A stretch of 64,000 bases of DNA from an uncultured Acidobacteriota bacterium (GCA_963844245.1 CAWJNJ010000005.1:331889-395888); one strand, 5' to 3'; numbered from the stretch's first letter, positions 5,339 to 64,000 are shown. Numbers and translations: made by a program. Notes: generated by a model not told the origin, from the letters alone.

Positions 5339-6401
5339 ATGATTTTCGACAAACTCACCGCGCTCGAGGCCAAGTACGAGCAGCTGATGGCCGAGATGGG
5401 GACGCCGGCCGTCCAGGCCGATACGGCGAAGTTCCGTACGCACTCGAAGACCGTGTCGGAACTCCAGCCGCTCGTCGACGCCTACCGCGAGTACAAAGCG
5501 GTGGCCGAACATATCGCCGGTGCGGAGGAACTGCTGAAGGATCCGGACATGCGCGACCTCGCGCAGGACGAGCTCCAGTCGCTCCAGGCGCGCCGGGATC
5601 AGCTCATGTCGGAGATCAAGGTCCTCCTGATCCCGAAAGATCCCAATGACGCGAAGAACGTCATGCTCGAGATCCGGGCGGGCACGGGCGGTGAAGAGGC
5701 GGCCCTCTTCGCCTCGGACCTCTTCAGGATGTACTCGCGCTACGCAGAGCGACAGGGCTGGAAGCTGGAAGTCCTGAACATGAGCGACGGCGGCACCATC
5801 GCGCAGATCGAGGGGCGGAACGTTTACAGCCGTCTCAAGTACCGAGAGCGGCGTTCACCGCGTCCAGCGCGTGCCGGTGACGGAAGCAAGCGGACGGATC
5901 CATACGTCCACGGCCACGGTCGCGGTGCTGCCCGAAGCGGAGGAAGTGGACGTCCAGATCCAGGAGAAGGATCTGCGCATCGATACGTTCTGTTCCAGTG
6001 GACCCGGCGGCCAGAGCGTCAACACGACCTACTCAGCGGTCCGCATCACGCACCTCCCGAGCGGCATCGTCGTCTCGCAACAGGACGAGAAGTCGCAGGT
6101 GAAGAACCGCGCCAAAGCGATGAAGGTCCTGCGTGCGCGTATCTACGATCTCGAGATGCAGAAGCAGCATGACGCGATCGCCAAGGACCGGAAGACCCAG
6201 GTCGGTACCGGCGAACGCTCCGAGAAGATCCGCACCTACAACTTCCGCGAGAACCGCATCACCGATCACCGCATCGGCCACACGATGCACCAGCTGACCG
6301 CCGCCCTCGACGGCGACCTCGGCGAACTGATCGACGCCGCGGTCACCTACTTCACTTCCGAAAAGCTCAAGGACGCGACCGGCGGCGAGAACGCGGCCTG
6401 A
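5339..6401 (+). CDS. prfA: peptide chain release factor 1, reading frame broken by one extra nucleotide near 5842-5843
   Basis: ORF 5339..6172 gives the N-terminal RF1 part up to RLKY. ORF 5871..6401 carries [22 protein letters not shown] (PVT tripeptide = RF1) and the GGQ motif ([10 protein letters not shown]). Junction reads aag tac C gag agc. Confidence 0.9.
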
Positions 6402-7263
6402 TGGCCTCGGTCGCCGAGCGGCTGACGGCTGCGCGGCGGCGGCTCGAAGCGGCCGGTCTGAACGCGGCTGACGCGGCCCTCGACGCCGAGGTGCTCACTC
6501 GCCACATCCTCGGCTGGGACCGCGCCGACCTCATCGTCCGCGGCCGCGACCCCGAGCCACCGGACTTCGCCGCGCGCCTCGACGCCCTGATCAGCTAGGC
6601 GCGCCGCGCGAGAACCTGTCGCCCAGATCACCGGCGTCCGCGAATTCTGGGGGCTGGAATTCGAAATCACACCTGACGTCCTGATCCCGCGCCCGGAGAC
6701 CGAGATCGTTGTCGAAGAAGCGCTGGCATTTGCCGCGGCACATCCGTGCCGGACGATCGTTGACGTCGGTACCGGCAGCTGGCTGCCTCGCCGTCACGAT
6801 CGCGCATGCACTGCCTGACGTTCACGTCACAGCAGTGGACGCGTCCGCGGCTGCACTCGAGGTCGCCCGGCGCAACGCGGCACGTCACGGCGTCGAGGGT
6901 CGCGTCACCTTCCATCACGGCGATGTTCTCGAGGGGCTCTCGGGACGCGCCGACCTCATCGTCTCGAATCCTCCCTACGTGCCGGAAGCCGATGCCGCCT
7001 CCATGCAGGAGGACGTCGTCCGCTACGAGCCGTACATGGCCCTCTTCGGCGGCAGCACAGGATTCGAAGTGATCGAGCGGCTGTTTCGCCAGGCGGCCGA
7101 TCACCTTGCACCCGGCGGGCAACTCATTGTTGAATTCGGCTTCGGCCAGGCCGAGCAGGTCAAAACGCTCGCCGAAGCAGCGGGGTGGCGGATCGTGCGC
7201 GTCCGCGACGACCTGCAGTCCATCCCGCGCACAATTGTCTTGAGCAGGACACCGAATGCCTGA
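6401..7263 (+). CDS. prmC: release-factor glutamine N5-methyltransferase PrmC/HemK, frame broken twice (about 6596 and 6780)
   Basis: Three frame segments: MASVAERL...DALIS; then [36 protein letters not shown]...VDVGTGS; then [12 protein letters not shown]...IVSNPPYV. The NPPY catalytic motif is present. Start ATG overlaps the prfA stop. Confidence 0.85.
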
Positions 7264-7600
7264 CTGTCTCTTCTGCAGAATTATCGCCGGCGAGATTCCA
7301 GCCGCCATCGTCTACCAGGACGAGCAGTTGGTCGCCTTCAAGGACATCACGCCGCAGGCGCCAACCCACATCCTCGTCATCCCGAGGCGCCACATCGCCA
7401 CGCTCAACGATCTCGTGCCGGAAGACGATGGGCTGGTGGGAGAAATGACGCGTCGCGCCGCCGCGATTGCGAAGGAGCTGGGATTGGCGGACCGGGGTTA
7501 CCGGGTCCTTTTCAACTGCAACGCTGAGGCAGGACAGACGGTGTTCCACATCCACCTGCACCTGGTCGGCGGCCGCAGGCTGGGCTGGCCACCCGGATAG
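7256..7600 (+). CDS. HIT-family (histidine triad) nucleotide hydrolase
   Basis: 114 aa. CLFCRI, HILVIPRRH, and the histidine triad VFHIHLHLVGG. Confidence 0.85.
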   Translation: MPDCLFCRIIAGEIPAAIVYQDEQLVAFKDITPQAPTHILVIPRRHIATLNDLVPEDDGLVGEMTRRAAAIAKELGLADRGYRVLFNCNAEAGQTVFHIHLHLVGGRRLGWPPG

Positions 7601-7633
7601 GAGAATGGAAAGGGAAAAGGGAAGATGGAAAAG
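7601..7633 (+). repeat. purine-rich GGAAAAG-word element, copy A
   Basis: GAGAATGGAAAGGGAAAAGGGAAGATGGAAAAG starts immediately after the HIT stop codon. Identical, apart from a 2-nt indel, to the reverse complement of 18684-18718. Confidence 0.8.
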
Positions 7634-7649
7634 TATCTAGCGCGCCAAG

Positions 7650-61575: not shown

Positions 61576-62404
61576 CTAGATGGTTCCGAGCAGGGCGCGG
61601 ATGCGCGCCTCGGTCGGGGGGTGCGAGCTGAAAAGGGCCGAAATGCCGCCGCCGGTAAAGGGCTTGATGATGAACATGTGGGCCGTCGCCGGGTTGGCGT
61701 CGAGCGGAACCCGCTTGGCGACCGCCTCGATCTTGCGCAGCGCATTGGCGAGACCGTAAGGATTACCGGCGATTTCCGCCCCGGTCGCGTCGGCCGCGAA
61801 CTCGCGCGAGCGCGAGATCGCCATCTGCACGAACAGGGCGGCGATCGGGGCAAGGATCATCATCGCCAGCATGACGATCGGGTTGGATCCCGCCGTCACG
61901 ATCGTCACGGCTGCCGCCCATGAACATCGCCATCCGCGCAAACATCATGATCGCGGCCGCGATGGTCGCGGCGACCGAGCTGATCAGGATGTCGCGATTC
62001 TTGACGTGCGCCAGTTCGTGCGCCATCACCCCGTCGAGCTCGTCGGGGCTGAGCACCTGGATGATCCCCTCGGTCGCCGCGACGGCGGCGTGCGATGGAT
62101 TGCGTCCGGTCGCGAAGGCGTTCGGCGAGGAGTCGGGAATGACGTAGACCTTGGGCATCGGGAGGCCGCCGCGCTGGGCGAGCCGCGCCACGCTCTGGTA
62201 GAGCGGATGTTCGGCGCCGACTTGCTTGGCCTGATACATCCGCAGGACGATCTTGTCCGAGAACCAATACGAACCAAAGTTCATGATCACGGCGAAGGCA
62301 AACGCGAACATCAGACCCTGGGAGCCCCCGGCCAGTTCGCCGATGACCAGCAGGATGCCGCTGAGGGCGCCGAGGAGGACGACCGTCTTTATGCCGTTTG
62401 CCAT
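61576..62404 (-). CDS. htpX: zinc metalloprotease HtpX, frame broken by one extra nucleotide near 61885-61888
   Basis: HELAHV zinc motif in ORF 61763..62404. The C-terminal part ([33 protein letters not shown]...[10 protein letters not shown]) is in ORF 61576..61941. Confidence 0.85.
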
Positions 62405-62413
62405 GCCTCTATT

Positions 62414-63563
62414 TTACTCCGCCGACGTGTTGATGCGCTGAAGGAGCGCGGCCAGGAAGGCCGCCCGCCAGGGCAGGTCCACGAGCCGCACGTGCTCGTG
62501 CAGCGCGTGGGCACCGTCGCCTTGCGGCCCCAGCCCGTCCAGCGTGGCGACACCAAGAGCGGCGGTAAAGTTTCCATCCGACCCGCCGCCGGTCGCGCCT
62601 TCGGCGAGCTCGCGGCCCAGTGTTCTGGCCACGCCTTGCGCCTGTTGATAAAGACGCGCGACGGCGGCCGTACGTTCCAGCGGCGGCCGTTCGAAACCGC
62701 CCTTGACCTCGAGTCTCACCCTGGGATCGACGACCTGGAGATCACGAAACTGCTGCTCGACCCGGTCGGCGTCCTCTCGTGTCGGAGCCCGGACGTCGAT
62801 CACAGCCTGCGCGGCTTCGGCGACGACATTCGGACGGGTGCCGCCACTGATGACGCCGGCGTTGACGCTGACGCCACGGTCGGGATCACTCAGCTTCTCG
62901 ACCGCGAGGATCAGCCGGGCGAGTTCGTGCACGGCGCTCGCGCCCTGGCGCGGATCGATCCCCGCATGCGCGGAGACGCCGCGCACGGTCAGCGTGAACT
63001 CGCCACACCCCTTCCGCTGTGTCTTGCAGGCACCGCCGGGGAGCGAGGGCTCCATGACCAGCACCGCATCGCTCGCCTGCGCCTCGCGTCTCGATCAACG
63101 CGCGCGAGGTGCCGCTCCCCACTTCTTCGTCGGTCGTCCAGAGCATCACGACTCTCGGACGTGGCAGCTGCTGCGCCTCGACCGCACGCACCGCGAGCAG
63201 TGCGATCGCGATGGACGCCTTCATGTCGTAGATGCCCGGGCCGTAGAGACGGCCGTCGTGTTCGCGAACCGGCATCCGCTCCAATTGTCCGACCGGCCAC
63301 ACGGTATCGAAGTGGCCAAGGATCAGCACGCGGCGGGGGCCGCCCGCGAACTCCGCCCTGATGTGATCGCCGCGGCTCACCTGTGCAAGCCGGTCCACCC
63401 GGGCACCGGCCGCCTCGAGCATCCCAACAAGGAGGTCGCCGCAGCGGTCCACTGCCGCCTTGTCATCGCTTGGTGATTCCAGCCGGACCAGCGCCTCGAC
63501 GTCCCGCCGAAGGGCGCTCGACTCAGACTCGCAATAGGCGATCAATTCCCTCATCGAGCGCAC
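62414..63563 (-). CDS. M20-family metallopeptidase (glutamate carboxypeptidase/CPG2-like), frame broken once near 63084-63087
   Basis: LGHFDTVWP, GPGIYDMKA and TTDEEVGS in ORF 62886..63563. MEPS..., RKGCGEFTLTVRGVSAHAG, GGTRPNVV and GGGSDGN in ORF 62414..63064. Confidence 0.8.
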
Positions 63564-63618
63564 ACTCCCCGGGCTCTTCGCGTGCCCCTTCTGCTACTGG
63601 CGTCCCTATAATAGGAGT

Positions 63619-64000
63619 ATGCGCAACATGCTCCCGCTCGCGCTCCTGATCGCCTCGCTGGTGACGGCCGTGGCCGCGCAGGTCCCGCAGCCGTTTCCCA
63701 AACCCGGTGCGCCGGCTCCACCGGTCGCGACGCCGAGCGCGCCGACCGCAGGCGGGGGCGCCGAAAGTGATCGAGCCCGCCGAGGGATCGCTCGGGGTTG
63801 CGATCTATCCGTCAGCCCAGTTCATTGCTTCGTACGATGCCGGGATGGGGCAGCGCTACTACCTGTACGGGACGACCGCGCCTTTCGCCGACATCGTTCA
63901 GGTACTACCGGAACACATTGAAACAGCGTGGTGAGCTCGTCTACGAACAGCCCGCCCTGCACCAGTTCGACATCGGGCGCTTCCGCGAGGAATCCATGGC
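63619..64000 (+). CDS. secreted protein of unknown function, 3' end outside window, frame broken twice (about 63755 and 63902)
   Basis: Signal peptide MRNMLPLALLIASLVTAVAAQ, then a Pro-rich linker. Continues in frame +1 (PKVIEPAEGSLGVAIYPSAQFIASYDAG...) and again +1 (YYRNTLKQRGELVYEQPALHQFDIGRF). Confidence 0.5.

Follow-up and report, generated by a model that had tools for sequence, protein, structure and literature searches.

The window analysed here is a stretch of 64 kb of DNA (62-67% GC) from a contig of an uncultured Vicinamibacterales metagenome-assembled genome (MAG; GCA_963844245.1, CAWJNJ010000005.1:331889-395888), in which the reading frames of numerous genes, prfA, ileS and lptD among them, are interrupted. 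With a probability of about 0.93, these frame breaks are errors of the deposited assembly and not features of the organism. Frameshift-aware alignment located 25 breaks, and all 24 unambiguous ones consist of one extra base (two-sided binomial, P = 1e-7), the remaining one being either -1 or +2. At the sites that could be compared directly, the extra base was absent in four of four cases from a near-identical contig of another assembly and in two of two cases from short-read contigs. The artefact is partly motif-specific. A first-pass annotation of the window had proposed a systematic consensus or basecalling artefact, a proposal borne out by breaks that are private and insertion-only and by the same signature in loci of Nanopore-only MAGs. 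The repaired IleS protein is 94% identical to proteins titled 'MAG: Vicinamibacterales bacterium', which points to an uncultured soil acidobacterium.

Location and spectrum of the frame breaks

The breaks were located with a purpose-written protein-to-DNA aligner with explicit frameshift states, for which the open reading frames (ORFs) of 160+ related loci served as queries. The number of reference loci per break was 13-22 at the best-referenced sites and 3-12 at the others. For the TolB/PKD and HAF genes, which are without syntenic references, separately gathered homologues were aligned instead. Events at gene boundaries, as produced by stop-to-stop reference ORFs, were discarded (e.g. 17130, 36670, 38497, 40111 and 57926). 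Indel lists obtained at the DNA level against relatives of about 80% identity (L001, L164-166) were swamped by compensating alignment gaps and were replaced by the protein-guided alignment. Every single-base deletion around each junction was scanned for the best repair, and the coordinates of NCBIfam profiles were used as an independent test of the gene splits.

Fifteen breaks fall in core genes, seven in the TolB/PKD gene and three in the HAF gene. This agrees well with the first-pass annotation, which had listed about two dozen breaks in these genes, five or more of them in TolB/PKD and three or more in HAF, and had found most junctions to be mended by the removal of one base. Deletion of one base indeed resolves all 24 single-base events.

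The core-gene breaks are the following (square brackets enclose the extra base or the bases among which it lies). On the plus strand, prfA, encoding RF1, has an extra C at 5842-5843 (AAGTAC[C]GAG), and prmC is broken twice by one extra base, at 6594-6595 (GATCAG[C]TAGG) and at 6778-6780 (GGTACCGGCA[G]CTGG). The extra C of ileS, also on the plus strand, lies at 13535-13536 (GAGTAC[C]GAG). Deletion of position 5843 gives an RF1 of 353 aa and deletion of position 13536 an IleS of 935 aa, so that an edit of one nucleotide restores the full-length conserved protein in both genes. An extra C was found on the minus strand in relA/spoT (25513-25514, ACCGG[CC]GCCGATC, 13 reference loci) and in a gene of the DUF502 family (36338-36339, GAGTAC[C]GGC, 19 loci), and on the plus strand in a TPR gene (43326-43327, AAGTAC[C]TAC). 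The lptD gene on the plus strand contains four breaks of one extra base each: at 52686-52689 in GAG[TTGG]ATCTG (12 loci), at 52754-52755 in GGAC[GT]GAAAG (12 loci), at 53011-53026 with the best placement at 53016/7 in GGCGT[GC]GCGAAC, and at 53066-53068 in CAGTC[G]TGAAC (11 loci). Two genes of the minus strand follow, each with one extra base, namely htpX (61888-61892, GACGG[CGGGA]TCC, 22 loci) and an M20 peptidase gene (63086-63090, best at 63088 in GATCGAGA[C]GCGAGG, 18 loci). The terminal secreted gene on the plus strand has one extra base within a Pro/Ala-rich linker, placed only to the range 63744-63775, and a second break at 63897-63902 (12 loci), where the best repair removes the G of CAG[G]TAC.

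The NCBIfam profiles support the splits independently of the aligner. Two overlapping ORFs in different frames match positions 6-181 and then 181-357 of the prfA profile, and the same arrangement was obtained for ileS (1-194, then 197-856) and for htpX (1-172, then 173-275). In all three genes the profile coordinates continue exactly across the junction. Both halves of the broken genes are 88-98% identical to their orthologues, and judged by this conservation the core-gene halves show no sign of decay.

Ten intact proteins of the window have exact counterparts in the public protein collection, all on one contig of 1,074,765 bp deposited at NCBI and ENA. Public gene calls on this source contig correspond to the broken products. 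The protein records comprise an HtpX of 213 aa, a RelA of 842 aa, a Lon of 848 aa, a TolB fragment of 290 aa and a HAF fragment of 158 aa; HtpX is thus a fragment compared with the 275 aa of a relative, and the RelA of relatives with 90% identity or more measures 716 aa. The breaks thus belong to the deposited sequence and did not enter at a later stage.

The distribution of the breaks is uneven. Four of them lie within 380 bp of lptD, five within 160 bp of TolB/PKD and ten within the 2.6 kb of a variable island (18650-21246) that is located between the NUDIX and Lon genes and holds HAF and TolB/PKD. The density reaches 3.85 breaks per kb in this island, compared with 0.24 per kb outside it.

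Related genomes, recoding and pseudogenisation

A comparison with orthologous loci in close relatives, which had been suggested as a check, was carried out. One near-identical relative is L163 (ENA ERZ25039547, contig_49854, 103,959 bp), a contig from another ENA assembly with 94-96.5% nucleotide identity to positions 472-23278 of the window. It covers the breaks at 5842, 6595, 6778 and 13535, that is those of prfA, prmC (both) and ileS, and it lacks the extra base at each of them while the flanking 10-mers are identical; at the prfA site it reads gtctcaagta[-]cgagagcggc. Two further contigs, both 90-92% identical to the window, cover the later genes: L167 (ERZ27274792, k141_1560654), a contig of 10 kb with a MEGAHIT-style name, and L168, a Logan short-read contig. 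Intact DUF502 and TPR proteins are encoded by L167, in which the extra bases at 36338 and 43326 are absent. At the latter site it reads gatgtacaagta[-]ctacgccgatgt, with 12 flanking bases on each side that are the same as in the window. The extra base at 36338 is equally absent from L168. None of the breaks is carried by any reference orthologue; for relA, lptD, htpX and the M20 peptidase gene, 0 of 11-22 reference loci carry them.

The near-identical contig has an error load of its own. Relative to the window, L163 contains 54 single-base insertions, which lie in genes that the window has unbroken; scored against outgroup proteins, its robust +1 breaks number at least 15. The insertions of L163 are absent from the window, so each of the two near-identical genomes has a private set of insertions. 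Over positions 1-21317 of L163, about 1.4-2.7 single-base insertions per kb were counted, and ileS, lgt, lon and a thiD-like gene are among its many fragmented genes.

Altogether 16 related loci were screened for frameshifts in the same manner; the sequencing platform of most of them was taken from contig names or source. Only +1 events were found in L163 and in L003, L016 and L065, which are loci of MAGs labelled MFD and known to be Nanopore-only. Ten other loci were included. Six of them (L001, L002, L164, L165, L013 and L028) are without any break, L040 and L066 have one weak +1 event each (three references), L043 has one -1 event, and L062 has two +1 events at the edge of an N run; the few non-N events rest on 3-4 references, with positions unchecked. 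Apart from these few weak exceptions, the signature is shared by assemblies of the same technology and not by short-read ones. The events at 14616 in L003 and 14663 in L016 lie at a stop/start junction and are probably boundary artefacts. Apparent breaks were also seen near the 3' end of a pyrophosphatase gene in L062 (12199-12239, with an N run) and in L016 (12259-12275); these are artefacts of those records and not of the window.

The same comparisons bear on the proposal that the core-gene breaks are real and are tolerated by programmed +1 frameshifting or by quadruplet decoding, for example of UAC-C by a Tyr tRNA with an expanded anticodon loop. Four breaks do share a Tyr TAC codon followed by an extra C in the same codon phase, and essential genes are affected, in which real breaks would have to be decoded. 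Recoding would however be conserved, and the breaks are absent from the relatives, from L163 as well as from 13-22 orthologues, for which reason it was rejected. Moreover, twenty other breaks lie in unrelated contexts (the contexts of the 25 sites are heterogeneous), and identical AGTACG and AGTACC words are read in frame without a shift. The shift sites possess neither a stop nor a rare codon; at the prfA site (AAG TAC CGA GAG) the 0 frame stays open for about 110 codons, up to 6172. Extrapolated to the genome, the rate of about one event per 2.6 kb would require recoding in roughly one gene out of three. A tRNA search of the window found none and an Rfam search gave no matches, and thus no suppressor tRNA or RNA element supports such a mechanism. 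The closest known parallel is the programmed +1 frameshift of prfB (RF2, CUU UGA C), in which, as at the prfA break, one additional nucleotide separates the two frames of a release-factor gene. It differs in that the gene is here prfA, the site is without an in-frame stop or a Shine-Dalgarno-like stimulator, no relative conserves the shift, and the window has 24 further breaks whose genes and contexts are unrelated. Recoding, already held to be much the less likely reading in the first-pass annotation and contradicted by the non-conservation in L163 and the orthologues, is consequently considered extremely improbable.

Pseudogenisation of the core genes was likewise rejected, in line with the initial view that it is implausible. 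Decay of bacterial pseudogenes is biased to deletions, whereas 24 of 24 events are insertions and the flanks remain 88-98% identical to orthologues; the island forms a partial exception. Decay would not strike prfA, ileS and lptD at once, and a genome of 95% identity would share it. The window resembles decaying genomes that accumulate pseudogenes in its many disrupted genes and in the truncations and the nonsense codon of the island. It differs from them in that essential single-copy genes are hit, their halves are highly conserved, the events are +1 insertions, and the breaks are private.

Sequence context and probable origin of the extra bases

The heptamer RAGTACC occurs nine times in the window, and four of these occurrences are break sites, exactly as originally described. 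A fifth site is the second break of the terminal gene, where the best-scoring repair, which is not unique, corresponds to TAGTAC+C on the minus strand. The motif is better given as AGTAC+C (five sites) than as RAGTAC+C. A C is inserted directly 3' of AGTAC at five of the 25 events, while AGTAC is present at 56 sites in the window (P about 8e-13); about 9% of the AGTAC sites (5/56) are thus hit. In-frame AGTACC without a break was also pointed out initially and was seen again at 27890 and 51831. In addition, GAGTACGAGGA at 8062 (minus strand) and AAGTACGAG at 5373 are the same as affected sites and yet clean. Identical 11-mers are clean elsewhere, which shows the process to be stochastic, as it should be where the consensus call is on the borderline.

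Of the two candidate modified words named in the first-pass annotation, GTAC held and GATC did not. Five breaks lie near GTAC where 0.42 would be expected (GTAC occurs 110 times in the whole window). Five lie within 6 nt of GATC where 2.3 would be expected, which is not significant because GATC is over-represented threefold, with 677 occurrences against about 207 expected from base composition. With proximity at chance level, GATC was rejected as an error motif. The recurrence of CAGCT at both prmC sites and of CGTG at three lptD sites was seen as stated; these are common words and were not found to be significant. A reference-free 'ORF-merge' test of AGTACC as an error hotspot in other Nanopore loci flagged 6-8% of the sites for every control word, in Nanopore and other loci alike, and proved too noisy in high-GC DNA.

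The contig is very probably the product of a Nanopore-only pipeline of the Flye plus one-round-Medaka type. This attribution draws on the megabase size of the contig (1.07 Mb), the Flye-style name of its near-twin L163 and the shared error signature. The pipeline of the MFD Nanopore MAGs is of this kind, being Nanopore-only with Flye plus one Medaka round (PMC12313526), and in Nanopore-only assemblies genes are known to be fragmented by leftover indels, above all where coverage is under about 40x (PMC9262707). The breaks of the window share several traits with the indel errors of such assemblies (Sereika et al., 2022, PMC9262707; pipeline, Sereika et al., 2025, PMC12313526). They are assembly-private single-base indels, the frames are mended by an edit of one nucleotide, and the public protein calls are fragmented. 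Neither of the short-read contigs L167 and L168 has them, and the other non-Nanopore loci of the screen seldom show robust breaks. Their density varies by contig and by region, as expected if it is driven by coverage.

In this explanation the consensus step wrote single extra bases, of two groups. In a systematic group, the consensus tends to add a C at AGTAC, a hotspot that may reflect a modified base in the strain or simply a word that is hard to call. Most errors lie outside the AGTAC motif and are clustered instead; this scattered group would accumulate where the pile-up was presumably poor or mixed, as in the lptD patch and the HAF/TolB island. The affected genes were then split or extended by gene callers, as is seen in the public records.

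Four points weigh against an assembly artefact of this type. The sequencing platform of the contig was deduced indirectly. The spectrum of the window is insertion-only and lies mostly outside homopolymers of 3 or more, unlike the textbook Nanopore pattern, in which errors of homopolymer length, mostly deletions, dominate. The AGTAC+C hotspot was not clearly reproduced in L016, L065 and L163, where the break positions are ambiguous. The truncations at the island edges and the nonsense codon within it are not explained by consensus indels.

Two variants of the artefact explanation were considered. According to the first, the AGTAC subset would be the footprint of a strain-specific DNA modification that leads to the calling of an extra C by distorting the Nanopore signal, the candidates being a Type III-like m6A at AGTAC or a ScaI-like m4C at AGTACT. 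This would refine the assembly-error explanation and not replace it. The five C insertions directly after AGTAC and the excess of breaks near GTAC identify a word hotspot, as such a modification would produce. That L163, which represents another strain and sample, is clean at the prfA and ileS sites fits a strain-variable restriction-modification system, although it is no proof of one. Methylation motifs are furthermore an established and major class of systematic Nanopore consensus errors (PMC6591954; also PMC11649196). Compared with errors at known methylation motifs such as Dcm CCWGG (Wick et al., 2019, PMC6591954), the hotspot is alike in that a short word attracts errors far above chance and in that closely related strains or samples are affected differently. 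It is unlike them in that the modification of AGTAC is putative, only about 9% of the sites are affected with identical 11-mers left clean, and a specific C is inserted. No methyltransferase was identified, and a k-mer bias independent of any modification would look alike. Published methylation errors are mainly miscalls within the motif and not a specific inserted base, which also counts against this refinement. A modification footprint is therefore retained as a tentative option, with the balance tilted against it.

The second variant concerns the scattered insertions, many of which could arise if reads of co-existing strains were piled together and two alleles were written as adjacent columns. 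Such mixing would account for the insertion-only spectrum and for the clustering in variable regions, the errors being clustered in lptD and in the strain-variable island. The unambiguous insertions of L163 adjoin a wobble base in 15 of 17 cases (p=0.04), and at 14838 the AGT of the window corresponds to A+TCG in L163, as if two synonymous Ser codons had been merged (ATCG). The statistics are weak and this is the one clear example. The AGTAC+C insertions could not be produced in this way, as TAC and TAT alleles would give TACT or TATC. Strain mixing as the source of the scattered insertions is accordingly regarded as unlikely.

The HAF/TolB island, an ORF-poor interval and consequences

The island at 18650-21246 contains two genes of the minus strand. 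The TolB/PKD gene (18690-20394) has seven single extra bases, at 20265, 19559, 19546, 19482-96 (approximately 19485), 19424-33 (19427), 19399 and 18933-6. The HAF-repeat gene (20434-21246) is broken at 21051 (-1 or +2, in GGTGGGATCC), at 20561-7 (20564, +1) and at 20506-9 (+1). For the apparent -1 junctions, the first-pass annotation had allowed a reading as pairs of nearby +1 events. This reading was upheld near 19405 and 19549; the third junction, at 21051, is the one event of the window that is either -1 or +2.

The island is not present in L001 and L002, and L163 has 1.2 kb of unrelated sequence in its place. This segment was examined as a possible counterpart and rejected, as it shows no homology to the HAF/TolB cassette. 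As the island is absent or replaced in relatives, only part of the population may carry it.

Beside the indels, the island shows features of another kind, and some of the damage to its two genes might be genuine, the genes being pseudogenes of an accessory cassette in decay. The alignment of HAF with its homologues begins only at their residue ~85 and, in the window, directly after the last sense codon of Lon (junction at ~21246). The TGA of Lon, present in L001, L002 and L163, is missing in the window, which extends Lon by a tail of 34 codons. At the other junction (~18690), the TolB/PKD gene lacks a C-terminal domain of about 105 aa, which is present in most homologues. At 20982-20984 (minus strand), HAF carries an in-frame TAG, by a G>A change, where all homologues have Trp (TGG), a codon that had been missed in the first-pass annotation. 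No other substitution-type disruption was met along the alignment paths of HAF and TolB/PKD, the two that were screened for in-frame stops. Relatives differ from one another at this locus. In other metagenomes, matches to the two genes fall on contigs of equal size (24,410 bp and 8,217 bp); should the matches share one contig in each case, HAF and TolB/PKD would make up a real two-gene cassette, which would speak further for this proposal. On the other hand, nine of the ten island indels are single-base insertions, which is the signature of the artefact and runs against the deletional bias of pseudogene decay. The break density of the island is moreover of the same order as that of the error-rich L163. 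Genuine decay of the cassette is thus viewed as improbable, and assembly error remains the preferred explanation for the island indels. The island may represent a decaying cassette or the path of a minor strain in the assembly.

One interval of the window attracted attention for another reason. Between the convergent TPR and HEAT/cyclophilin genes, about 0.9 kb (44400-45290) contains no ORF that reaches 100 aa. Relatives match the core of this interval (44611-44893) at 83-88% identity, compared with only 66-84% in the coding DNA on either side, and searches of the region with Rfam and for tRNA and tmRNA gave no match. The interval is possibly an unannotated RNA or regulatory region.

The frame breaks themselves have little biological importance and matter for genome quality. 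With breaks spaced at about one per 2.6 kb, the public record mis-calls roughly one in three window genes, for example those of RF1, IleS, LptD, RelA and HtpX. Such mis-calls inflate the counts of pseudogenes and of novel short proteins, and they may mislead the inference of metabolism and of essential genes for this uncultured soil lineage. As signatures that can be checked, the AGTAC+C hotspot and the restriction to insertions could serve to flag such assemblies or to repair them, for example by homology-guided or methylation-aware polishing. If the modification reading is true, the AGTAC+C artefact would mark a real epigenetic motif, together with its restriction-modification system, in an uncultured Vicinamibacterales bacterium.

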